NCBI GenBank assembly: GCA_943787175.1
Contig: CALSLK010000031.1
Coordinates: 5,120-69,119, forward strand
Reading direction: 5' to 3'
Length of the DNA stretch: 64,000 nt
From: an uncultured Alphaproteobacteria bacterium
Lineage (GTDB): Bacteria > Pseudomonadota > Alphaproteobacteria > SP197
Translations under genes and position numbers: made by a program
In this document: positions 7,071-64,000 of the stretch, piece after piece
Layout of the letters: each line of letters starts with the position of its first letter
How positions within the stretch are numbered: position 1 is the stretch's first letter
Notes under the pieces: model-generated
What the model was told of the DNA's origin: nothing
Databases searched by the model: none
What the model saw: only the letters and a program-made list of their open reading frames with translations

Positions 7071-7172
7071 GTGTCATCCCGGCCTTGAGCCGGGATCTCG
7101 GTCCGCACGTTGCTTTTGAAACGCGTCATGACGAGATCCCGGATATTCGCTGCGCGAATTCCGGGATGACAC
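7071..7172. repeat. REP/REPIN-like element, copy 1 (GTGTCATCCCGG...CCGGGATGACAC)
   Basis: 12-bp terminal inverted repeats and two internal hairpins. Core GATCTCGGTCCGCACGTTGCTTTTGAAACGCGTCATGACGAGATC is shared with 50708-50816. Confidence 0.85.
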
Positions 7173-19375: not shown

Positions 19376-20602
19376 ATGCAGGCAAACACTGATGCTGTGT
19401 CTGTTAAGGAACTTGTGGCCCGGCAGAAGCCCGGATTCACGCTGGATCAACGGTTTTATCGCGATCCCGAGATCTTTCGGAAGGACCTGGAAAAGGTCGT
19501 CGGCAAGTCGTGGCTTTACGTCGACCACACCAGCGAAATCCCCAACAAGGGTGATTTCCTGCTTTATCAGATTGGCGAAGAATCCATCATCGTCGTACGC
19601 GGTCGCGATGGCGAGGTTCGGGCGTTCTTCAACGTCTGCCGTCATCGCGGCAGCCATATCTGCCTTAAAGATCAGGGCAATGTGCGCACGCTTACCTGTC
19701 CCTATCACGCCTGGATCTATGATCTTGAAGGCCGGTTGATCGCAGCGCGCGGCATGCCCGAGGATTTCGACAAATCGGAGTTTCCGCTCCATTCCTGCCA
19801 GGCCCGCGTTGCCCACGGTCTCATTTTCATCTGCCTGGCGCGTCCGGGCGATCCCGATGTAGCGGACTTTGATCCCATTGCTTCCGATATCGACCAGCTC
19901 ACCGCTCTGCATCGCATCGAAGATACGAAGATCGTGCATCGCGAGGTTTACCCAACGCCTGCAAACTGGAAGCTCGTCGTCGACAACTTCCGTGAGTGTT
20001 ACCACTGCACGCCGGCGCATCCTGAATACACGATGGTCAATGCCTACGTGAAAGCCCACGATCGCGACTTGGGATCCTATGATCCCGTCGTCAAGGAATG
20101 GGAGGGCAAGACCATCGCCCTTGGCCATCCCGTCGGTCAGAACGGCGGCAATGAAGGTGATCCCCGCCAGCCCGGTGGATACTGGCGCCAGCCGATCCGC
20201 GAGGGGTTCGTGACATTGTCGGAAGACGGCAAACCGGTCGCACCTCTCCTGGGCGATCTCCAACACTGGGATGGTGGCGAAACGGCCTTTACCTTCGGGG
20301 CGCTCTCCTATGCCTATCTCTGTGCCGATCACCTCTGCATGTTCCGCTTCACGCCGGTCAGCCCAGAGCATTCCGATGTCGTCGTGACCTGGCATGTCCG
20401 GTCCGATGCTCAGGAAGGACGGGACTATGATCTCGAGCGTCTGAAATGGCTGTGGGATGTCACGACTGTCGAAGACACCAAGATCATCATCGACAACCAG
20501 AAGGGCGTGAACTCCAGCCGCTATGAACCCGGCCCCTATGCGCCCCTGGAGGCGTATTCCCACGATTTCACGCGCTGGTACCTGGAGCGGCTCGCCGGTT
20601 AA
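19376..20602 (+). CDS. Rieske non-heme iron oxygenase alpha subunit (GbcA/Stc2-like), copy 1
   Basis: NVCRHRG...CPYHAW Rieske motif; NWK...NFRECYHC..AH mononuclear iron motif. GGAGG RBS. Confidence 0.92.
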   Translation: MQANTDAVSVKELVARQKPGFTLDQRFYRDPEIFRKDLEKVVGKSWLYVDHTSEIPNKGDFLLYQIGEESIIVVRGRDGEVRAFFNVCRHRGSHICLKDQGNVRTLTCPYHAWIYDLEGRLIAARGMPEDFDKSEFPLHSCQARVAHGLIFICLARPGDPDVADFDPIASDIDQLTALHRIEDTKIVHREVYPTPANWKLVVDNFRECYHCTPAHPEYTMVNAYVKAHDRDLGSYDPVVKEWEGKTIALGHPVGQNGGNEGDPRQPGGYWRQPIREGFVTLSEDGKPVAPLLGDLQHWDGGETAFTFGALSYAYLCADHLCMFRFTPVSPEHSDVVVTWHVRSDAQEGRDYDLERLKWLWDVTTVEDTKIIIDNQKGVNSSRYEPGPYAPLEAYSHDFTRWYLERLAG

Positions 20603-20678
20603 GGCATCAACTGTCATGGGTATTGACGAATCGTGTGTGTCAGCGTGAGAGTTACGCTGGCTAACCCGGGGTAAGGTC

Positions 20679-21938
20679 ATGGCGCATGATGCTGATGTGA
20701 CGTTCGAAGAACTGGTGGCTCGCCAGAAGCCTGGCATGTCGCTGGAACAACCGTTCTATACCGACCCTGCGATCTTCGAGCGCGAGATGGCGGACGTGTT
20801 GCCGGGCCAGTGGCTTTACGTCGAACACACCACGACGATTCCCAAAAAGGGCGATTATGTCCTCTATGACATTGCCGGTGAGTCGATCATCGTCGTGCGC
20901 GGGCGCGATGGCGAAATCCGCGCGTTCTACAACGTGTGTCGTCATCGCGGCAGCCGCGTCTGTCTGGCACCACAGGGCAATGTGCGCACACTGACCTGCC
21001 CCTACCACGCCTGGGTCTATGATCTCGAAGGCAAGCTCATCCATGCCGCACTTATGGCCGATGACTTCGATCCCGGTGACTGGCCGCTGCATGACTGCAG
21101 GGTGCGTGTGTGGGAAGGCATGATCTTCATCAACCTTGGTGATGATGACGGGCCGGTGGCCGATTTTGACGAAATCACCGCAGCCTTCGAGCGTTATGCC
21201 AAACCCTATCGCCTGGCTGATACCAGGATCATCCATCAGGAGACCTATCCCACGGACGCGAACTGGAAGCTCGCGGTCGAGAACTTCCGCGAGTGTTACC
21301 ACTGTTCGCCGGCACATCCCGAATACACCACGGTCAATGCCTATGTGAACGACGGCGATCGCGATCCCGAAACCCGCGCGAAGCTGGTCGAAGACTGGGT
21401 CACAGAGTGGGAAAGCAAGGGCGTTGCTGCCTGTGACCTGCGGAATTGGGGCGACCTGCTCGACGCCATTCAACCCTATGGCGCGTTCCGACAGCCGATC
21501 CGCGAGGGTTCATGGACCCTGTCGCAGGATGGCCAGCCCGTGGCGCCGCTCATGGGTGATCTCAAGGAATGGGACAAGGGTGAAACCCTGCTCATTGTCG
21601 GGCCGCTCTTCTACATCTACCTGGCCAACGATCATGCCGCGCTGTTCCGGTTCACCCCGGTCCGTGAGGACCATTGCGAAGTCGTCGTGACCTGGCTGGT
21701 GCGGGACGATGCAGAGGAAGGGCGCGATTACGACACCGACAAGGTGATCTGGATGTGGGACGTCACCACCATCGAAGACACCAAGATCATCAACGACAAC
21801 CAGCTCGGCGTGAACTCCCGGCGCTATATGCCGGGCCGTTATTCCGAACGCGAATACGGCACGCGCAACTTCATTGCCTGGTATCTCAATCGCATGGGTG
21901 CCCAGGGTGTTGTCAGCCCCGTGGTGGGCCAGCCCTGA
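20679..21938 (+). CDS. Rieske non-heme iron oxygenase alpha subunit (GbcA/Stc2-like), copy 2
   Basis: Same motifs; long segments identical to copy 1 (ESIIVVRGRDGE, QGNVRTLTCPYHAW, WDVTT.EDTKII). Confidence 0.92.
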   Translation: MAHDADVTFEELVARQKPGMSLEQPFYTDPAIFEREMADVLPGQWLYVEHTTTIPKKGDYVLYDIAGESIIVVRGRDGEIRAFYNVCRHRGSRVCLAPQGNVRTLTCPYHAWVYDLEGKLIHAALMADDFDPGDWPLHDCRVRVWEGMIFINLGDDDGPVADFDEITAAFERYAKPYRLADTRIIHQETYPTDANWKLAVENFRECYHCSPAHPEYTTVNAYVNDGDRDPETRAKLVEDWVTEWESKGVAACDLRNWGDLLDAIQPYGAFRQPIREGSWTLSQDGQPVAPLMGDLKEWDKGETLLIVGPLFYIYLANDHAALFRFTPVREDHCEVVVTWLVRDDAEEGRDYDTDKVIWMWDVTTIEDTKIINDNQLGVNSRRYMPGRYSEREYGTRNFIAWYLNRMGAQGVVSPVVGQP

Positions 21939-22001
21939 AAATGCAAAGCGGCCGGCGTGAGGGCGCCGACCGCTGCAATCAAACGACTGGACTGGTGTGG
22001 C

Positions 22002-22215
22002 TTACGCCGCCAGCTGCAGATCGCTGATCTCGAAATCACAGATGCAGACCATCAGGTCATTCATGTCGTCGGCAACGATCGTGTCGTCGCCGCGTCCTGG
22101 CGGCAAGCTGGTCAACATCGGCGCTGGCCTGCTTTGCAGCAACCGCGTCGGCGAAGAGAACCACGGTGTCGCGGTCCTGGCTGTCGATGATGATGTCGGT
22201 GGTGTTCTTGGTCAT
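22002..22215 (-). CDS. Small acidic hypothetical protein (~70 aa) with an apparent frameshift
   Basis: GGGGGA RBS, then MTKNTTDIIIDSQDRDTVVLFADAVAAKQASADVDQLAA. A shift near 22097 continues with host-like codons as (G)RGDDTIVADDMNDLMVCICDFEISDLQLAA-TAA (stop at 22002-22004). Confidence 0.5.
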
Positions 22216-22444
22216 GGTCATTCCCCCCAGAATGATGATGGGCGTTTCGCCCGCTGTCTGGGGATCATGTAGGAACAACCCCGAATCCGGCAAGACCGGC
22301 TACCGGCCATCTGTGCGTCCGGTCACACCGGGTTCGCCGTCTCAACAGACAAGTGTGTGCTTCATCACATGATTTGGCCCGATAGAGCCCCCTTGCGCTG
22401 CCCGGCCGTTTGCCGCCACCATGCCCCGCATTGGAGGCGTGGAC

Positions 22445-23620
22445 ATGAAAACACTCGATAATCTGCTCGACGATCTGGCCCAGTACGTCACGACACCCGA
22501 CGATGCTTCCTGGTCGCTTCCGCGTGACGCTTACCTGTCGCCGGATCTTCATGATCTGGAGGTTCGCGAGATCTTCGAGAAGTCCTGGCTTTGCGTCGGG
22601 CGTGAAGAGTACATCGCCAAACCTGGCGATTACTTCACCATCGACCTGATGGACGAGCCGGTGGTCATCGTGCACGGCACCGATGGCGTGATCCGTGCGC
22701 TCAACAGCGCCTGCCGCCATCGCTACATGCCGGTGGTCGCGGGCAAGGGCAATGCCAAACGGTTTGTCTGCCCCTACCACACCTGGACCTATGCCACCGA
22801 TGGACGCCTGATCGGCGCGCCCCATATGGAAGGCAGCAAGGTGTTCGACAAGGCCGCCTGCAGCCTGCCGCAGTACCGCCTGGAAAGCTGGCAGGGATTT
22901 CTCTTCGTCAACCTGGATGACGATGCCGCCCCACTTCAGGTCACGATGGCGTCCATGGATAAGGCCGCAACGAACTACCGTGTCCATGAGCAGACCGAGG
23001 TCTTCCATTACGAGATGACATGGAACGGCAACTGGAAGCTCTCCGCCGAGAACTCCATGGAGTACTACCATCACATCGGCCTGCATTCCGGCACGGTCGG
23101 GGTCCAGATGCCGGCAAAGGGGGCCTACTTCCCCGACAGCACGCAAGCCGACGACACCTTCACCCACTCACGTTGCAGAGTGGGCGATGAGTTCCTGGGC
23201 GGAGCTGATCATCCGCTCAACCCGCGCGGCGACCTGACCGGCCTGACCCAGGAAGAGCTCGAAACCGGCTATCTCGTCTATGTCTTTCCTGCGTTCACCA
23301 TGGCGATGCGGGCAGGCACCAACAACTGGCTTGCCTTCCGCCCGGATGGCCCTGAGAAGACCACGGTGCTGGGCGGATACCTGATGTGGCGTGATTTGGT
23401 CGAAGAAGATCCAGAGGTCACCGCTGCGCGTGCCGAGCTGATCGAGAAGGTCAACACCGAGGATGCGCTGGCCACCACCGAACTGGCCCGGGTGATGCGC
23501 TCTCGCAAGGCGGGTCGTGGACCACTCGCGCCCTTCGAAAAGACCATCGCCCAGTTCTACAAGTACCTGGGCCGCACGCTTGCCGGCGACCGGATCACGA
23601 CGCGCCAGGCTGCTGAATAG
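22445..23620 (+). CDS. Rieske oxygenase alpha subunit, copy 3
   Basis: CRHRYMP...CPYHTW; NWKLSAENSMEYYHHIGLH. GGAGG RBS. Confidence 0.92.
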   Translation: MKTLDNLLDDLAQYVTTPDDASWSLPRDAYLSPDLHDLEVREIFEKSWLCVGREEYIAKPGDYFTIDLMDEPVVIVHGTDGVIRALNSACRHRYMPVVAGKGNAKRFVCPYHTWTYATDGRLIGAPHMEGSKVFDKAACSLPQYRLESWQGFLFVNLDDDAAPLQVTMASMDKAATNYRVHEQTEVFHYEMTWNGNWKLSAENSMEYYHHIGLHSGTVGVQMPAKGAYFPDSTQADDTFTHSRCRVGDEFLGGADHPLNPRGDLTGLTQEELETGYLVYVFPAFTMAMRAGTNNWLAFRPDGPEKTTVLGGYLMWRDLVEEDPEVTAARAELIEKVNTEDALATTELARVMRSRKAGRGPLAPFEKTIAQFYKYLGRTLAGDRITTRQAAE

Positions 23621-23623
23621 GAA

Positions 23624-24805
23624 ATGATCATGTCTGATGTTACCCAACGTCTGCTCGACACGCTGGCGACCTATCCCGCGACGCCCGATGCGGCGAGCCT
23701 CACCTTGCCGCCGCAGGCCTATACCGATCAGGGACTCTTTGAGCTGGAGGTCGAAACGATCTTCAAGCGCGAATGGCTGCTGGTCGGGCGTGCCAACGAC
23801 ATCCCCGATCCCGGTGACTGGTTCACCATGCAGGTGGTTGATGATCCCCTGCTGATCGTGCGTGGCAACGACGGCGTGATCCGTGCGCTCTCGAATGTCT
23901 GCCGCCACCGCTACATGCCTATCGCGCTGGACGAGAAGGGCTCGGACAAGCGATTTGTCTGCGCCTATCACGGCTGGGTTTATGGCACGGACGGAAGGCT
24001 GGTTGCCGCACCCCTGATGGAAGGTTCGCTGGCGTTCGACAAGAAGGACTGCGCCCTGCCGGAATACCGTCTCGAGATCTGGCAGGGCTTCATCTTCGTC
24101 AATCTCGACGATGACGCTCCGGCTCTTGCGCCTCAGCTTCACGAAGCCGATGCCATGCTGGGAAACTACAGAATTGATGAGTTGGTAACCGGCATTGCCT
24201 ATGACGCCATCTGGGAAGGCAACTGGAAACTCGCCACTGAAAACGGCATGGAATACTACCATCACATGGGCCTGCATGCCGCGACCCTGGAGGCAGAGCA
24301 GCCTGCACGCCTTGCCAGGATGGATCCCGCGCCAGCAAGCGCGCGCTTCGCCCATGCGCGCTGTGGTTATGCTGAAGGGATACAGGGCCAGGCGGAAGGC
24401 TTCGGCAACTGGCCGCGCCCCAACTGCAAGTTCAGTGATTCCGAACTCAACCATGTCTATGTCATGGGTCTGTTCCCCAACATGTCGCTGGCCATGTCGT
24501 CGGCGACCCATAACTGGCTTTCGTTTATCCCCCTGAGTCCAGGAAAGACCCGTGTGGTCGGTGGTTTCATTGTGGCACCGGAAATGGCGGCTGATGCCGA
24601 AGTGATGGCGACCAGCAACGATCTGGTTATGCGCATCAACGAAGAAGACGCCCAGGCCACCTGGCGCCTGCAGCAGGTGATGCGCTCGACCAAGGCCGCA
24701 CCCGGGCCGCTCAACGTGCGCGAAGGCACCTGTGCCCAGTTCTACAAGTACCTTGGCCGCACGCTTGCTGGGGACCGACTGCCCGGCCTTCAGGCAGCAG
24801 AATAG
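23624..24805 (+). CDS. Rieske oxygenase alpha subunit, copy 4
   Basis: CRHRYMP...CAYHGW; NWKLATENGMEYYHHMGLH. Confidence 0.92.
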   Translation: MIMSDVTQRLLDTLATYPATPDAASLTLPPQAYTDQGLFELEVETIFKREWLLVGRANDIPDPGDWFTMQVVDDPLLIVRGNDGVIRALSNVCRHRYMPIALDEKGSDKRFVCAYHGWVYGTDGRLVAAPLMEGSLAFDKKDCALPEYRLEIWQGFIFVNLDDDAPALAPQLHEADAMLGNYRIDELVTGIAYDAIWEGNWKLATENGMEYYHHMGLHAATLEAEQPARLARMDPAPASARFAHARCGYAEGIQGQAEGFGNWPRPNCKFSDSELNHVYVMGLFPNMSLAMSSATHNWLSFIPLSPGKTRVVGGFIVAPEMAADAEVMATSNDLVMRINEEDAQATWRLQQVMRSTKAAPGPLNVREGTCAQFYKYLGRTLAGDRLPGLQAAE

Positions 24806-24816
24806 GGAGAGTACCC

Positions 24817-25995
24817 ATGTCCGATATAACCGAGCAGCTGCTCGATACCCTGGCAACCTATCCCGGCACGCCGGATGCGGCCTGCATGACCCTGCCACCG
24901 CAGGCCTATACCGATCCCGGACTTTACGAGATCGAGGTCGAGACGATCTTCAAGCGCGAGTGGCTGTTGATCGGGCGCGCCAACGACATTCCCGATCCCG
25001 GCGATTGGTTCACCATGACCATCCTGGATGAGCCGATGCTGATTGTGCGGGGCGCCGACGGCGCGATCCGCGCGATGTCCAACATCTGCCGCCATCGCTA
25101 CATGCCGATCGCGCTGGAAGATCGCGGCAACGCCAAACGCTTTGTCTGCGCTTATCACGGATGGGTCTATGGCACCGATGGCCGGCTGGTCGCTGCACCC
25201 CTGATGGAAGGCTCTCTGGCCTTCGAGAAGAAGGGCTGTGCCCTGCCGGAGTACCGGCTAGAGGTCTGGCAGGGGTTCATCTTCGTCAATCTCGATGACG
25301 ACGCACCCGCGCTTGCGCCTCAGCTGCACGAAGCCGATGCCATGCTCGCGCATTACAGCAACGCCGACCATGTGACCGGGTTCTCCTATGACAAGATCTG
25401 GGAAGGCAACTGGAAGCTTGCCACCGAAAACGGCATGGAATTTTACCACCACATGGGCCTCCATGCCGCCACGCTGGAGGAGGCCATGCCTGCCAAGGGC
25501 GCCTGGGTTGAACCCGCGCCTGAAAGCGGCCGCTTTGCCCATACGCATTGCTCGTATTCTGCGCATGGCAGTTACAAGGAAGGCGCTATGGCGCGCTTCA
25601 TTCCCGGCGAGGACGTTTTTACCGAGCTGGAAAAGACATCCTCCTATGCCATTGGTCTCTTCCCGAACATCTCGCTTGCGATGTCGGTCGACTCCAACAA
25701 CTGGCTGTCGTTCATCCCACTGGGGCCGGACCGTACCCGCGTGATCGGTGGTTACATTGTCCAGCCGGGTTACGACGCGGCCCATCCCGAAGGGGCCGCC
25801 CAACGCAACCAGCTGCTTTATGACGTCAACGAAGAAGACGCCCAGGCCACCTGGCGCCTGCAGAAGGTCCTGCGCTCGACCAAGGCCGCACCCGGCCCGC
25901 TCAACGTGCGCGAAGGCACCTGCGCCCAGTTCTACAAATACCTTGGCCGCACCCTTGCCGGGGATCGGGTCCCCGGCCTTCAGGCTGCCGAGTAA
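24817..25995 (+). CDS. Rieske oxygenase alpha subunit, copy 5
   Basis: CRHRYMP...CAYHGW; ENGMEFYHHMGLH. Close paralog of copy 4. Confidence 0.92.
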   Translation: MSDITEQLLDTLATYPGTPDAACMTLPPQAYTDPGLYEIEVETIFKREWLLIGRANDIPDPGDWFTMTILDEPMLIVRGADGAIRAMSNICRHRYMPIALEDRGNAKRFVCAYHGWVYGTDGRLVAAPLMEGSLAFEKKGCALPEYRLEVWQGFIFVNLDDDAPALAPQLHEADAMLAHYSNADHVTGFSYDKIWEGNWKLATENGMEFYHHMGLHAATLEEAMPAKGAWVEPAPESGRFAHTHCSYSAHGSYKEGAMARFIPGEDVFTELEKTSSYAIGLFPNISLAMSVDSNNWLSFIPLGPDRTRVIGGYIVQPGYDAAHPEGAAQRNQLLYDVNEEDAQATWRLQKVLRSTKAAPGPLNVREGTCAQFYKYLGRTLAGDRVPGLQAAE

Positions 25996-26017
25996 CCCTG
26001 ACATCGGGAATCCGCCC

Positions 26018-42078: not shown

Positions 42079-43191
42079 ATGACGCATTCCCCATCAGACC
42101 CGCCGGAGTTCCCAGGCGATGCCTATGACAGTGAGGCCTTCTGGCTGCGCGAACAGAACGACCTGTTTGGCACGGCGTGGGTCCATGTTGCATCCGGCTT
42201 CGAATTGCCTGATCCCGGCGATGTTCGTCCGGTCATGGCAGCCGGCCAGCCGCTGATCCTGATCCGCCAGCGCAATGGCTCGATTGCCGGGTTCCATAAT
42301 GTGTGCCGCCATCGCGGTCCGCGTCTGGTGCGCGAGGCCTGTAACGCTAAGGCCGTGCTGACCTGCCCCTATCATGGCTGGGCCTATGGTCTGGACGGTG
42401 CTTTGCGCACAACGCCCTATTGGTCTGTTGAAGACGGCTCCGCGCCGGAAGGTTTCGACAAGGCTGCGTTCGGCCTCAAACCCGTACGTTGCGAAACCTG
42501 GTGCGATCAGGTCTTCGTTTGCCTGGATGACGACGCACCGTCCTTTGCCGTGCACGCAGCACCGCTCATGGCGCACTGGGCTCAGGCGGACCTGTCCCTG
42601 CTGCGTTACGGCGCCCACGTAACCTATGAAGTTCCGGTGAACTGGAAATGGGTGATCGAGAACTATCTCGATACCTATCACCTCCCGCTGCTTCATCCCG
42701 AGCTCGGCCCTGTCGACTCTGCGCGCAGGTTCAACGTCATGAATGACGGAAACCTGATCGGGATCGACTACACCAGCGGTGCCGTCGACAAGAACAAGGG
42801 TGATACCGGTTTCCAGACGTTTCCGGGGCTTGATGGCGCGCAACTGGTACGCCAGGACATCGCTTTGCTGTTTCCCAACACGCTGTTCGAATTTGTCCCT
42901 GAACACGTGATGTTCTTCCGGGTCGAACCCCTGGGCCCCAGGCAGACGCGCGAAACCCTGGCGTTCTATTTCCTGGGCGATGACGCAACCAGCCCCGATC
43001 TGGCGGCGGGACGTCAGGCATCACTCGATGCCTGGGATCGCATCAACCGGCAGGATTTCAGGATCCTTGATGAATTGCAGGCAACGTCGGCCTCTCCGGC
43101 TGCGCGTGGTCTGGCCCCGGCTTCCCCGTTCTGGGAGGGCGCGAACATGGCCTTCCGCAAACGCCTTCTGGCAGCATTGGAGATAACATGA
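42079..43191 (+). CDS. Rieske oxygenase alpha subunit (choline monooxygenase-like), copy 6
   Basis: HNVCRHRG...CPYHGW; NWKWVIENYLDTYHLPLLH; LFPN; QDFRIL. Confidence 0.9.
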   Translation: MTHSPSDPPEFPGDAYDSEAFWLREQNDLFGTAWVHVASGFELPDPGDVRPVMAAGQPLILIRQRNGSIAGFHNVCRHRGPRLVREACNAKAVLTCPYHGWAYGLDGALRTTPYWSVEDGSAPEGFDKAAFGLKPVRCETWCDQVFVCLDDDAPSFAVHAAPLMAHWAQADLSLLRYGAHVTYEVPVNWKWVIENYLDTYHLPLLHPELGPVDSARRFNVMNDGNLIGIDYTSGAVDKNKGDTGFQTFPGLDGAQLVRQDIALLFPNTLFEFVPEHVMFFRVEPLGPRQTRETLAFYFLGDDATSPDLAAGRQASLDAWDRINRQDFRILDELQATSASPAARGLAPASPFWEGANMAFRKRLLAALEIT

Positions 43192-50707: not shown

Positions 50708-50816
50708 GTGTCATCCCGGCCGACCAAAGGGAGAGCCGGGATCTCGGTCCGCACATTGCTTTTGAAACGCGTCAGGACGAGATCCCGGCTCTCCTTCCAG
50801 TCGGCCGGGATGACAC
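50708..50816. repeat. REP/REPIN-like element, copy 2
   Basis: GTGTCATCCCGGCCGAC...GTCGGCCGGGATGACAC; core nearly identical to 7071-7172. Confidence 0.85.
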
Positions 50817-54213: not shown

Positions 54214-54333
54214 GTGTCATCCCGGCCGACCAATGGGAGAGCCGGGATCTCGTCATGACGGGTTTCTTATGCAGCGTGCGGGCCGAGATCCCGGCTCTGC
54301 ACCGCGCGAAGCGCGGCTTGGCCGGGATGACAC
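54214..54333. repeat. REP/REPIN-like element, copy 3 (core inverted relative to copies 1 and 2)
   Basis: Same terminal inverted repeats. Core CTCGTCATGACGGGTTTCTTATGCAGCGTGCGGGCCGAG is the reverse complement of a diverged copy-1 core. Confidence 0.85.
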
Positions 54334-59551: not shown

Positions 59552-60847
59552 CTAAACCTTCATGGCGGCGCGCAGGCCGCGGTTGAGATCGTCCTTGAGG
59601 TCGCCAACGTCTTCCAGCCCGATCGAAAGGCGGACCAGACCTTCACTGATGCCCGCAGCCTTCAGCGCCTCGGCCTCGACCTGCTGATGGGTCGTGGAGG
59701 CGGGATGGATGACCAGCGATTTTGCATCGCCGACATTGGCCAGATGCGAGAAGAGCTGCAGCGATTCGATAAACGCCGCACCTGCCTTGCGCCCGCCCTT
59801 GACCTCGAAGCTGAAGATCGAGCCGCAGCCCTTGGGCAGCAGACGCTTGGCAACTTCATGGTCAGGATGGTCGGGCAGTTCGGGATAACCCACGCTTTCG
59901 ACCGCTTCGTGTTCGGCCAGGAACGCCACGATCTCGCGGGCATTGGCCATATGGCGGTCCATGCGCAGGGGCAGGGTCTCGACGCCCTGCAGCAGGTGAA
60001 AGGCGTTGGTCGGGCTCATGCAGGCACCAAAGTCGCGCAGGCCTTCCGCGCGGGCCCGCATGATCATGGCGGCCGGGCCGAATTCCTCGGAAAAATCCAG
60101 GCCGTGGTAACCATCATAGGGCTCCGTCAGGGTCGGGAACTTGCCCGATGCCTCCCAGTCGAAGGCACCGCTGTCGATCAGGGCGCCGCCAACGGCAATG
60201 CCGTGACCGCCCAGGAACTTGGTCACCGAATGCATGACGATATCGGCACCATGCTCGAACGGTTTGAAGAGGTAGGGCGTGGCAAAGGTGTTGTCGATCA
60301 TCAGCGGAACACCGGCATCGTGCGCGATGTCGGCGATGGCCGGAATGTCCATGATTTCCAGGCCCGGATTGCCCAGGGTCTCGCCATAAACCAGCCGCGT
60401 CTCGGGCCGGATCGCCTTTTTGAAGGCATCGGGATCGCGCGGATCAACCAGGGTCGTGGTGATGCCAAAACGCGGCAGGGTGTACTGGAACATGTAGTTG
60501 GTGCCGCCATAGAGCGAACCCGACGACACGATATGTCCGCCCTGGCCCATCAGCGTGGCGATGCCCAGGTGAATGGCTGCCATGCCGCTTGCCGTGCAGA
60601 CCGCGCCAACGCCGCCCTCAAGCCCGGCAAGGCGCTCTTCGAGCACCGCAACCGTCGGGTTCGAGATGCGCGTATAAAGGTGCCCCGGCCGCTCCAGGTT
60701 ATAGAGCGCGGCGGCATAGTCGGAATCAGGAAAGACATAGGATGTCGTCTGATAGATCGGCACCGCCCGCGCACCCGTCGCAGGATCAGGCTGCTGCCCG
60801 CCATGCAGAGTCAGCGTATCGAAACCGACATATTTAGGACCAGCCAT
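59552..60847 (-). CDS. O-acetylhomoserine aminocarboxypropyltransferase/sulfhydrylase (MetY-like)
   Basis: ARAVPIYQTTS, YTRISNPT, DNTFATP, HSVTKFLGGHG, HLANVGDAKSLVIHPASTTH. Confidence 0.93.
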   Translation of the reverse strand: MAGPKYVGFDTLTLHGGQQPDPATGARAVPIYQTTSYVFPDSDYAAALYNLERPGHLYTRISNPTVAVLEERLAGLEGGVGAVCTASGMAAIHLGIATLMGQGGHIVSSGSLYGGTNYMFQYTLPRFGITTTLVDPRDPDAFKKAIRPETRLVYGETLGNPGLEIMDIPAIADIAHDAGVPLMIDNTFATPYLFKPFEHGADIVMHSVTKFLGGHGIAVGGALIDSGAFDWEASGKFPTLTEPYDGYHGLDFSEEFGPAAMIMRARAEGLRDFGACMSPTNAFHLLQGVETLPLRMDRHMANAREIVAFLAEHEAVESVGYPELPDHPDHEVAKRLLPKGCGSIFSFEVKGGRKAGAAFIESLQLFSHLANVGDAKSLVIHPASTTHQQVEAEALKAAGISEGLVRLSIGLEDVGDLKDDLNRGLRAAMKV

Positions 60848-60867
60848 GAACGCGTCTCCCCGGATGT

Positions 60868-60906
60868 TGGTTGGAACCTAATGCGGATCGTGGCTGGTTG
60901 GAACCA
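60868..60906. promoter_or_regulatory. Two copies of TGGTTGGAACC (candidate GntR/FadR-type operators)
   Basis: Copies at 60868-60878 and 60895-60905 in a divergent promoter region; each is an imperfect palindrome (TGGTT-GG-AACCA). Confidence 0.45.
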
Positions 60907-60982
60907 TCACCTGCCCCTACTTCTGCTTGGCCCCATGCCCTGCCTGCGCTAGGAAGCGGCGAACGAATTCGGGGAAAAGACC

Positions 60983-62296
60983 ATGACGCGTGAAATCAAC
61001 TCAGTGGCAGTGATCGGTGGCGGCACCATGGGTGCTGGTATTGCGGGCAAGTGTGCGGATGCCGGCTGCAAGGTGCTGTTGCTCGAAATCAACGAGGAAG
61101 CTGCCGCCAAGGCGATGGAGCGCATCACGGGCGGACGCTCGCCTGCCATCGAAAATCCAGAAAGCGCCAAGCTGATCGAAACCGGCACGTTCGACGATCT
61201 CGACCGCATCGCGGGTTATGACTGGATCTGCGAAGCCGTGATCGAGGATCTGGCGACCAAGCGCGATCTCTTCGTGAAACTTGATGCCGCGCGCAGCCCA
61301 GGCTCGGTGATCTCGACCAACACCTCGGGCATTCCCCTACGCTCAATCGTCGAAGGCATGCCCGAAAGCCTGCGCCGCGATGTCGTCGTCACCCACTTCT
61401 TCAATCCCGTGAAGGTCATGAAGCTGCTTGAGGTCGTGCCGGGCGAAGACACGACACCCGATGTCGTTGCCGCCATGGCAGCCTTTGGTGCGGATAAACT
61501 GGGCAAGGGCGTCGTGCACGCCAAGGACACGGTCAACTTCATCGGCAACCGCATCGGCTGTTTCTGGATGCTTTCAGGCCTGCACAAGGCGCGCAAGGCA
61601 CGCCAGGAAGGCGGGCTTTCCATGGAGACCATCGATGCCGCCATGTCGGGCCCGGTCGGCCTTCCGCCCACGGGCCTCTATGGCCTGATCGATCTCATCG
61701 GCCTCGATATCATGGACTTCGTGGGCAAGAACCTCGCCATCAATCTGCCCCAGGGCGATGTCGGCCACAGTTTCACGGCCTTTCCGCCTGAGGAACAGGC
61801 CATGCTCGAGCGCGGTCAGCTCGGCCGCAAGACCGGCGGTGGTTTCTACAAGGTGACCAAAACCGAAGACGGCGGAAAGCTGAAGGAAACCTTCGATCTC
61901 GACACCGGTGACTGGCGTCTGACGGGTGCTCCCGATATCACCGAAGCCCACGGCACACTCCAGGGCCTGATGCTGGCCGACGATGCCGTCGGTGCCTTTG
62001 CGCGTGACCTGATGGGCGGCACGCTGCTCTATGCCGCTGATCTTGTGCCCCAGATTGCCGATGACGTCGTCAACATCGACCGCGCCATGCGCTGGGGTTT
62101 CGCGTGGGGCCAGGGGCCGTTCCAGATGATGGACGAACTGGGCCTTGCCATGATCATTGCGCGTCTTGAATCCATGGGTGAGGCGCTGCCTGCCATGCTG
62201 CAGGTGGCAAAGGACGCAGGTGCGGACTCGTTCTATCGAAACGAAGGAACCGAGTTTCTTGGCCGTGACGGCGCCTGGCACAAGGTGCCGGCTTAA
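60983..62296 (+). CDS. 3-hydroxyacyl-CoA dehydrogenase
   Basis: VIGGGTMGAGIA, EAVIE, STNTSG, HFFNP, FIGNRIG, IDRAMRWGF.W..GPF. Confidence 0.93.
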   Translation: MTREINSVAVIGGGTMGAGIAGKCADAGCKVLLLEINEEAAAKAMERITGGRSPAIENPESAKLIETGTFDDLDRIAGYDWICEAVIEDLATKRDLFVKLDAARSPGSVISTNTSGIPLRSIVEGMPESLRRDVVVTHFFNPVKVMKLLEVVPGEDTTPDVVAAMAAFGADKLGKGVVHAKDTVNFIGNRIGCFWMLSGLHKARKARQEGGLSMETIDAAMSGPVGLPPTGLYGLIDLIGLDIMDFVGKNLAINLPQGDVGHSFTAFPPEEQAMLERGQLGRKTGGGFYKVTKTEDGGKLKETFDLDTGDWRLTGAPDITEAHGTLQGLMLADDAVGAFARDLMGGTLLYAADLVPQIADDVVNIDRAMRWGFAWGQGPFQMMDELGLAMIIARLESMGEALPAMLQVAKDAGADSFYRNEGTEFLGRDGAWHKVPA

Positions 62297-62751
62297 GGTT
62301 CCAGGGTCGCCAGCGTCAGACCCAGGGAGCCGTCGTCTTCGCGCATCAGCGTGACTTCGGCCTCTTCGAAAATGCAGACGCCGTCGGCAGGCAGGCATGC
62401 GCCAAAGGTGATGCCAAGGCCTGTGGGCATGTCGATGCCGTCACCGTCAAAGACCAGGGTCTGAAGCACGGCACCGTCGAAATAGTCGCTCTCGACGACC
62501 AGAAGGCTGGGCAGGTCGTCCTGCCAGGTGCCGTAATCATCCAGCGCCTTCATGCCGATGCCCAACTGGCCGTTCAGCTTCACGTCCATGGTGGGCATGA
62601 TCGTGATCACCAGCTTGTCGTTGGAGCTGAGATGCGCCTGCACATCCACCCCGGTCGTGGTGATGGCCGAAGCGATGGTGTCAGCGCGCGCATCAGCATC
62701 GTGCATCAGCACAATAGTCAGGGCAGCAAGCAGGGTCGCGAAACGTTTCAT
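62293..62751 (-). CDS. Secreted protein, possibly DsbD-alpha-like (CX6C)
   Basis: Signal peptide; beta-rich sequence with YFDG and GACLPADGVC. Confidence 0.55.
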   Translation of the reverse strand: MKRFATLLAALTIVLMHDADARADTIASAITTTGVDVQAHLSSNDKLVITIMPTMDVKLNGQLGIGMKALDDYGTWQDDLPSLLVVESDYFDGAVLQTLVFDGDGIDMPTGLGITFGACLPADGVCIFEEAEVTLMREDDGSLGLTLATLEP

Positions 62752-62800
62752 GACATCTCTGGAAATGATCTAACCGCAGGGTCACCTCATAAGGTGACCA

Positions 62801-63158
62801 TGGTGTGGCCGCCAAGTCACGTTCGATTGAGCAGGCCAGGAATCCCGACCTTACCGAAACGGTAAGTCTTCTGCCCTGCCATCATGGCAAGTTGCCGAAG
62901 CTGTGACTGCGGTTTGAAAGCCCGGCAGGTCGTCGTGGGCCTATTCTGCCTGTCGAAACAGGGACGCAGGTTCCTGTGTGAAAGCACCCGGCCCCCAACA
63001 CCCGGGTGTTCAGGGGCGGCAGATCTCCGTCCACACCAGTCCCCTCGATCGCCGTCCTGCCTTGACGCGGCGCTGGTTTCGGCCAGTGCCGCGTTACGCG
63101 TTCCAGACACGCCTGATCTGGACAAATCCGCAGACATGCACGACATAGACCCCTGAAC
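62801..63158 (+). ncRNA. Candidate large structured non-coding RNA or leader upstream of prfC (family unassigned)
   Basis: Nested helices closed by 62801-62808/63031-63038, several GAAA/UUCG-type loops, and G-U pairs that work only on the + strand. Confidence 0.55.
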
Positions 63159-63179
63159 CACACCTCTTGGCAAACGAAC

Positions 63180-64000
<821 letters not shown>

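Follow-up and report, generated by a model that had tools for sequence, protein, structure and literature searches.

What fills the space between the divergent genes p152 and prfC of this uncultured alphaproteobacterium: an RNA of its own, the leader of a neighbouring gene, or a stretch of hairpin-prone DNA? The window, that is, the whole stretch of 64,000 nucleotides (nt) analysed, carries p152 on the minus strand and prfC, the gene of release factor 3 (RF3), on the plus strand, separated by a spacer of 428 nt (62752–63179). The initial annotation had seen here an uncharacterised noncoding RNA (ncRNA) or a complex leader of RF3; the ncRNA is supported as a candidate, but the RF3 leader is not supported. 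We find a real, conserved and structured insertion, which is a reasonable candidate for a new clade-restricted ncRNA with moderate evidence for an RNA function. Our tentative reading, possible rather than probable, is that a structured small RNA is encoded here by its own plus-strand gene, reaching from ~62800 to ~63098.

Conservation and folding of the element

Seven distinct full copies of the element are available, with pairwise identities of 51–91%. They come from the window, from the genomes G007, G014, G018 and G021 of the same genus, and from the contig loci L048 and L052 (G denotes genus genomes and L contig loci). A shuffling check proposed in the initial annotation came out in its favor: on the plus strand the spacer reaches −174.4 kcal/mol, better than its shuffles (z −4.46, 0 of 100 equal or better), and the minus strand gives z −2.01, with 2 of 100 shuffles as good. 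The segment 62801–63038 alone reaches z −2.76 (2 of 200 shuffles as good). When the RNAalifold consensus of the seven copies is compared with column-shuffled alignments, the plus strand scores z −5.49, and 0 of 100 are as good. The candidate RNA and its parts are as follows.

62800–63098, plus strand: candidate ncRNA of ~300 nt, from folding z-scores, homologues, covariance-model matches, pair counts and metatranscriptome contigs
62807–62914, plus strand: 5′ domain, from the RNAalifold consensus, enclosing two hairpins
62850–62866, plus strand: hairpin CTTACCG-AAA-CGGTAAG, kept in 7/7 copies
62877–62889, plus strand: hairpin TGCCA-TCA-TGGCA, with 82.9% of cells paired and both-sided changes in 2/5 pairs
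62912–62947, plus strand: invariant GTTTGA (62912–17), a variable hairpin and conserved GGGCCTATTCT (62937–47), from invariant alignment columns
62948–62983, plus strand: hairpin region of variable length, which the alignments show as absent from G018 and extended in G014 and G021
62984–63009, plus strand: hairpin GCACCCGG / CCGGGTGT, from hand and MAFFT alignments
63011–63059, plus strand: helix CAGGG(G)CGG(C)AGATC / GATCGCCGTCCTG, from minimum-free-energy and consensus folds, enclosing a 21-nt loop (63026–63046)
63063–63096, plus strand: terminal hairpin with a 15-bp stem, interpreted as an intrinsic terminator whose T tail is weak in this genome

The 5′ end of the candidate RNA is uncertain (62786–62807) and the 3′ end follows the terminal hairpin; the size of 240–360 nt estimated earlier is thus about right. 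Within the 5′ domain, GGCCG (62807–11) pairs with CGGTT (62910–14), where one pair changes from C-G to G-C in G014 and G021, and GTCACG-TTCG (62816–25) pairs with CGAA (62896–99) and TGTGAC (62902–07). The latter 10-bp helix, called Domain 1 in the initial annotation (AGTCACGTTCG, 62815–25, with CGAA and TGTGACT, 62902–08), is paired in 7/7 copies with one C-A mismatch and in 98.6% of cells, but it is invariant and shows zero covariation: 9 of its 10 pairs never vary. Its 5′ arm is frozen because it overlaps an older promoter block. The hairpin at 62850–62866, with TTACC in its 5′ arm, has both-sided changes in G018 and G014, and a short version in the genus genome G006 reads CTTGCCG/CGGCAAG (A-U to G-C).

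Further downstream, the hairpin at 62984–63009 comprises 45 Watson-Crick, 7 G-U, 3 A-C and 1 other cell in the hand alignment of seven copies; C-G is replaced by U-A in G018 and G-C by U-A in G021, and 4 of its 8 pairs have both-sided changes in the MAFFT alignment. Similarly, the helix at 63011–63059 changes from C-G to U-A in G014, and its 3′ arm is absent in G018. Its loop contains the invariant 15-mer CCGTCCACACCAGTC (63027–63041). The nucleotides 63013–63017 can pair either upstream (62991–95) or downstream (63047–59), and the changes of G014 suit both partners. The terminal hairpin is kept in six of the seven copies, with G-C to A-U in G021, U-A to C-G in G014, and 5 G-U against 1 A-C cell; in G018 the usual hairpin is replaced by CCCCTTATCTTTTT.

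Every helix named in the initial annotation is found in the window at its place, including the hairpins at 62911–22, 62946–69, 62976–87 and 62991–63017, and what survives comparison across the copies is a subset: the Domain-1 helix, the TTACC hairpin, TGCCA/TGGCA and the 3′ stem. The proposed closing helix, TGGTGTGG (62801–08) with CCACACCA (63031–38), is present in the window, but as a conserved organiser it fails in G018, G014 and G021, the three copies to which its 8 A-C and 6 other mismatches are confined, and it has no covariation. It is ruled out as the organising helix, and the nested architecture built on it is not conserved. The long arm at 62831–79 keeps its inner TTACC hairpin across copies, but not its outer part. 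A GNRA hairpin, GTGT-GAAA-GCAC (62976–87), occurs only in the window and L052, and of the putative hairpin GGTTTGAAAGCC GTTTGA alone is invariant. The stem at 62991–63017 competes with the better conserved pair of helices at 62984–63009 and 63011–63059. For the 15-bp stem at 63063–96 the pairing is kept but the UUCG cap is not, since the loop differs in every lineage.

Seven helices were defined by hand from the window sequence and counted on the MAFFT alignment of the seven copies. Paired cells amount to 88.8% of 411, compared with 32–46% when partners are slid by 1–3 columns. Both-sided changes are found in 13 of 60 pairs, compared with a shuffled mean of 5.9 (standard deviation 1.7, 0 of 500 shuffles reaching 13) and 1–4 with slid partners, the count being made on a structure derived from the same, related sequences and including at least one spurious pair, as the G018 row is non-homologous in the last two helices. 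With G018 left out, RNAalifold predicts 81 pairs for the remaining six copies, and 16 of these pairs have both-sided changes.

Two runs of 15 nt are invariant in 7/7 copies, namely GCCAAGTCACGTTCG and CCGTCCACACCAGTC. The former predates the insertion, for it is also found in the short-spacer loci L040 and L042, which lack the element; the latter is specific to the insertion. No open reading frame (ORF) is conserved: the ORFs vary in presence and length between copies, tblastn similarity is spread over all frames, and a small protein gene was rejected because none is kept in frame or length. Known RNA families were rejected as well, namely transfer-messenger RNA (tmRNA), RNase P, 6S, signal recognition particle RNA, riboswitches and known small RNAs. 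The Rfam check on 60000–64000 gave 0 matches at E≤1, in line with the initial annotation; Rfam 15 searched with the spacer alone at E≤10 returned two chance-level hits only, to a human long noncoding RNA and an archaeal small nucleolar RNA (21 and 14 bits, where the gathering scores are 75 and 45). ARAGORN called 0 transfer RNA (tRNA) or tmRNA genes in 62000–64000. Among the article texts open to a full-text search, nothing was found on an RNA upstream of prfC in Alphaproteobacteria.

Strand, transcription and a possible mode of action

The argument from G-U pairs made in the initial annotation holds. On the plus strand the hand-defined helices contain 330 Watson-Crick, 38 G-U, 8 A-C and 11 other cells across the copies, and the 38 G-U cells, many of which are inherited rather than independent, would therefore be 38 A-C mismatches on the minus strand. 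A T-rich tail downstream of the terminal hairpin occurs on the plus strand only. This asymmetry in G-U pairs and T tail favours the plus strand.

As a small-RNA gene, the element would consist of four parts: a 5′ domain of several hairpins, a variable central part, a 3′ domain whose 12-bp helix carries the 21-nt loop with the invariant 15-mer, and a GC-rich terminal hairpin that would end transcription just ahead of prfC's own promoter. It would be transcribed on its own and would act in trans, the invariant C-rich loop being the part that most likely base-pairs. In this genome the terminator is putatively weak and may pass some transcription into prfC. The terminator scan on the element's strand called a terminator in L052 (tail TCGTTTTTCG) and in G021 (tail CGCTATTTTG); the tail in the window is TTACGCGTT. 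A bolder version pictures a new family of structured RNA of ~300 nt that originated de novo in a single lineage of marine Rhodospirillaceae, between two promoters. Its invariant loop (…GUCCACACCAGUC…) would have a protein or the translation machinery, not mRNAs, as binding partner, and its leaky terminator would couple its expression to RF3. The loop includes ACCA, like the 3′ end of tRNA. We regard this version as highly speculative and most improbable.

Six runs recorded as RNA libraries contain part of the stretch, and four of them (X1–X4, from two studies) were examined. Their contigs match exactly, at a depth of 2–7 and unstranded, and the parts that they leave uncovered are uninformative. 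Two lie on p152 (62511–62717 and 62610–62766), one covers the 5′ half of the element (62786–62957), one runs from its 3′ half through the hairpin into prfC (62971–63239), and two lie on prfC (63122–63373 and 63168–63357).

Several lines of evidence weigh against the small-RNA gene. The RNA-library contigs concerned, at a depth of 3–6, would fit transcription of the element as well as read-through into prfC and prove neither, as carry-over of DNA is possible. Scans of the window, L052, G014, G021 and G018 yielded 0 sigma-70-like sites that could serve as a plus-strand promoter of the element, and no conserved −35 was seen by eye in the aligned upstream sequences. The terminal hairpin was left uncalled in three of the five genomes scanned for terminators (the window, G014 and G018). 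The 15-mer at 63027–63041 is predicted to be mostly unpaired (0.76–0.82) in only four of the seven copies. RNAduplex of 63027–63047 against 33,732 crudely defined start regions produced no clear outlier target (mean −12.6, standard deviation 4.2, best −32.5 kcal/mol). Besides the limits on the pair count given above, covariation across the copies is modest, with only seven related sequences, and the RNAalifold covariation term of the six copies, +0.34 kcal/mol, amounts to effectively no net support. The identity of the element (53–77%) is not higher than that of prfC four-fold degenerate sites (49–71%, with GC at third codon positions of 0.82–0.90). Conservation of GCCAAGTCACGTTCG may reflect a promoter or operator of p152 rather than an RNA, because it is present in the element-free L040 and L042. 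The minus-strand consensus fold also lies beyond its column shuffles (z −4.96, 0 of 100 as good). Lastly, mismatches in the 5′ hairpins are of the A-C type, which are G-U on the minus strand, two of them in the TTACC hairpin (G021 and G018).

Some of these points would suit a feature that is non-functional or acts as DNA: a lineage-specific insertion or expansion of hairpin-prone, GC-rich spacer DNA between two promoters, in which the conserved blocks are promoter or operator sites and no functional RNA is made. Identity at the level of prfC synonymous sites, a covariation term near zero, the missing promoter, an invariant 15-mer older than the insertion, a very narrow distribution and a freely varying length (G018 is short by ~50 nt, and G006 has only a hairpin and the terminator-like stem) all agree with such a feature. 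Against it, the second 15-mer (63027–63041) and its surrounding blocks occur only with the insertion, pairing in the stems persists although their sequences and the loops change, as the both-sided counts illustrate, and the consensus fold lies far beyond column shuffles. The element is moreover single copy, and hence represents no family of repetitive extragenic palindromic (REP) sequences or miniature inverted-repeat transposable elements (MITEs). We consider the DNA-level account unlikely.

Alternatively, the RNA could come from the minus strand, as a long structured 5′ leader of p152 started at a second, distal promoter near 63100. The element adjoins p152 in 7/7 copies, the minus-strand consensus fold is also better than its shuffles, and plus-strand A-C mismatches in the TTACC hairpin (G021, G018), the Domain-1 helix (G014) and the closing helix (G018, G014) turn into G-U on the minus strand. 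Against it stand the 38 G-U against 8 A-C cells overall, the weaker single-sequence fold of the minus strand (z −2.01 against −4.46) and a T tail confined to the plus strand. A conserved promoter-like site of p152 also lies between the element and p152, and, as weaker evidence, the RNA-library contig at the 5′ end of p152 stops at 62766. We consider a p152 leader quite improbable.

Relation to prfC and the neighbouring genes

The genes and promoter-like sites around the element are the following; both promoters are sequence predictions.

62293–62751, minus strand: p152, an ORF of 152 amino acids with a hydrophobic N-terminal segment (the name was coined for this analysis)
62787–62816, minus strand: predicted p152 promoter, TTGGCG (62815–62810), 17 nt, TTATGA (62792–62787)
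63119–63147, plus strand: predicted prfC promoter, TGGACA (63119–24), 17 nt, GACATA (63142–47)
63180–63998, plus strand: prfC (release factor 3), the N-terminal 273 codons, the gene continuing beyond the window

The identity of prfC is given by the NCBIfam models PRK00741.1 (1.1e-130) and TIGR00503 (2e-121), which are RF3 equivalog models. For p152, no Pfam or NCBIfam family matched. Its divergent position upstream of prfC is found by tblastn in 16 of 20 genus loci, and in G021 as well, where it lies farther upstream; the place beside prfC is thus kept in 17 of the 20 genus genomes with prfC, despite the lack of a Pfam or NCBIfam family. The C-terminal motif FGACLPADGVC of p152 presumably resembles thiol-disulfide domains of the DsbD-alpha type.

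Both promoter-like sites were judged against what we take to be the alphaproteobacterial consensus, and neither is called by a strict sigma-70 scan; the strict promoter and terminator scan of 62600–63300 called nothing. The predicted p152 promoter overlaps, on the plus strand, the invariant block GCCAAGTCACGTTCG, and its geometry is repeated as TTGGCC ... CTATGT/CTATCT in G014, G021 and G006 and in the short-spacer metagenome-assembled genomes (MAGs) L040 and L042. For prfC, TGGACA-N17-CACAYA/GACATA precedes the gene across the genus loci compared, those with ~100-nt spacers and no element included. As a separate observation, the block AAGTCACGTTCG(A/C)TTGA(G/C) at 62812–62830 is conserved between the divergent promoters even in the insertion-free L040 and L042. 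It contains an imperfect inverted repeat, GTCA-N8-TGAC, which may be a candidate operator common to p152 and prfC.

An internal promoter, composed of a TTGACA-like 62913–18 and TAnTnT at 62942–47, was also considered. The spacing of 21–22 nt in all copies is too long for standard sigma-70, and the promoter was therefore rejected. Extracytoplasmic-function sigma factors, RpoN and an anti-terminator were looked at by eye only and dropped, as the motifs are not conserved.

In three of the seven copies the element and prfC are separated by other genes, which makes a dedicated RF3 leader unlikely, and the element is very probably not an RF3 riboswitch. Its constant neighbour is p152, in 7/7 copies. 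The next gene after the element is prfC in 4/7 copies, a coenzyme A (CoA)-transferase in 2/7 (G021 and L052) and a small ORF on the opposite strand in 1/7 (G018). A prfC leader would call for no promoter in between and for a constant class of downstream gene; the prfC promoter-like site stands between the terminal hairpin and the prfC start, is also present in element-free members of the genus, and the downstream class is not constant. For RF3 itself the outcome is negative, with no good evidence of a dedicated prfC riboswitch or leader.

The inserted genes are worth describing in their own right. A gene of CoA-transferase family III lies between the element and prfC in the non-sister carriers G021 (L038, 2419–3933) and L052 (after 3530), the G021 version being broken into two ORFs. 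Ahead of the gene comes a conserved stretch of ~100 nt with an upstream ORF of 9 codons, MMAVMMLRG in G021 and MTPVTMLRG in L052. In G018 (L020 / L041) the insert is a 51-codon ORF on the opposite strand, which has the ribosome-binding site GGAGAG and an N-terminus resembling a signal peptide.

A more general leader can be envisaged, in which a distal promoter drives a long structured plus-strand leader for whichever gene follows, prfC here and the CoA-transferase elsewhere, and the hairpin is a regulated attenuator working as a riboswitch or protein-binding leader. The order of a structured domain, a terminator-like hairpin and a same-strand gene is that of an attenuator. The contig 62971–63239 bridges the hairpin into prfC and another begins at 63122, ahead of the point at which prfC transcription is predicted to start. 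The nucleotides 63013–63017 have alternative partners, with changes in G014 that fit both, and the T tail is weakest where prfC follows directly. The same comparison counts against this leader, however: the genus-wide promoter-like site separates hairpin and prfC, the downstream gene differs in three of the seven copies, and G018 has a replaced hairpin followed by an ORF on the opposite strand. In G021 and L052 a conserved upstream segment of ~100 nt belongs to the CoA-transferase itself, a candidate anti-terminator pairing seen by eye is not kept in G014, and the distal promoter was not found in the promoter scans. We find a leader of this kind doubtful, and keep the independent small-RNA gene as our tentative reading.

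Distribution and known systems

The sequence comparisons indicate that the element is a clade-specific, single-copy insertion or expansion of ~300 nt between the promoter-like sites of p152 and prfC. In its own genome (3.89 Mb, 38 contigs) it matches at this locus only, the next-best matches being chance hits of 16–32 nt (E>0.2). A DNA search of 60 relatives matched it in 4 of 22 other genomes of the genus (G007, G014, G018 and G021); with its own genome, the carriers are 5 of the 23 species genomes of the genus, in addition to two metagenome variants. A pattern scan of genome and metagenome contigs found the same carriers again and the variants L048 and L052. The covariance model built on the core of the element (62891–63062, 172 positions) matched 5 of 33 family genomes, its own included, with one match each. 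At the level of the order the same 33 genomes are covered, and one weak hit of 19 bits (E ~0.1) is added; of 150 other alphaproteobacterial genomes sampled, one per genus, 0 matched. By these searches, the element is confined to a few related marine Rhodospirillaceae in one sub-clade of one genus.

The spacers of the genus point to how it arose. The gene prfC was located in 20 of the 23 genus genomes. Carrier species are those whose prfC is closest to that of the window (90–96% identity), and their spacers measure 426–653 nt. In G006 (prfC 86%) the spacer is a short version of ~230 nt, holding only the first conserved block, the CTTGCCG-AAA-CGGCAAG hairpin and a terminator-like stem. The remaining species that keep the p152-prfC pair (prfC ≤82%), as most species of the genus do, have a spacer of ~100 nt, and the MAGs L040 and L042 found in the pattern scan have short spacers retaining only GCCAAGTCACGTTCGCTTGAC. 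From short spacers of ancestral type, the G006 intermediate and the long spacers of the carriers, the element is therefore read as an insertion or expansion.

Comparison with known systems gives only partial likeness. AbcR and CcsR types are alphaproteobacterial small RNAs that act in trans and combine C-rich loops resembling an anti-Shine-Dalgarno sequence with an intrinsic terminator. The element resembles them in its intergenic place beside a divergent gene, its hairpins, the invariant, C-rich and single-stranded-looking CCGTCCACACCAGTCCCCTC, the GC-rich end hairpin and the restriction to a clade. It differs in that its ~300 nt are two to three times longer, no promoter was found, sequence and Rfam searches gave no match, the duplex scan showed no outlier target and the loop is not uniformly accessible in predictions. 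With riboswitch and attenuator leaders it has in common that a conserved structured domain comes before a terminator-like hairpin in the orientation of the gene downstream, and that alternative pairings are possible (62991–63059), but a promoter-like site precedes prfC, the downstream gene is inconstant and no Rfam riboswitch matches.

The large 'ornate' bacterial RNAs of unknown function in Rfam include OLE, GOLLD, ROOL, raiA, HEARO and the marine IMES motifs. Like them, the element is a non-coding region of several hairpins, above the typical size of small RNAs, in environmental bacteria; unlike them, it has no Rfam match, a much narrower distribution, far lower conservation and no strong covariation. 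REP sequences and MITEs are similar in that the element, too, is an intergenic, GC-rich insertion that forms hairpins and, in this genome, ends in inverted repeats of 8 nt. Each carrier genome holds one copy, however, and the inverted ends are not conserved. A repeat or mobile element was rejected on its single copy in the own genome and the one covariance-model hit per carrier.

Two other features of the window were noted. At 19500–26000 and 42350–42550, tandem paralogous genes ~1187–1300 nt apart share blocks that are 60–88% identical, in at least five adjacent copies and one at 42.4 kb (families D1–D10); a motif in them translates to CPYH.W, which we take to be like that of a Rieske-type oxygenase. 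A palindromic element of 56–85 nt (GAGCCGGGATCTCG...CGAGATCCCGGCTC) occurs three times, at 7087–7142, 50708–50816 and 54214–54298. Two of its copies, inverted and 85% complementary, flank a segment of 3.4 kb (I1, I2, I4, D13), and the element may represent a REP/MITE-like repeat or mark where a small mobile unit ends.

How far the finding reaches is limited in three ways: its distribution is very narrow, covariation is modest and no carrier is in culture. Within these bounds, one genus still holds three stages side by side, the ~100-nt spacer, the ~230-nt intermediate and the full versions of 426–653 nt. If the element is transcribed, it would represent an unclassified ncRNA family from uncultured marine Alphaproteobacteria and would provide a case study of how a structured RNA gene originates inside a divergent promoter region.

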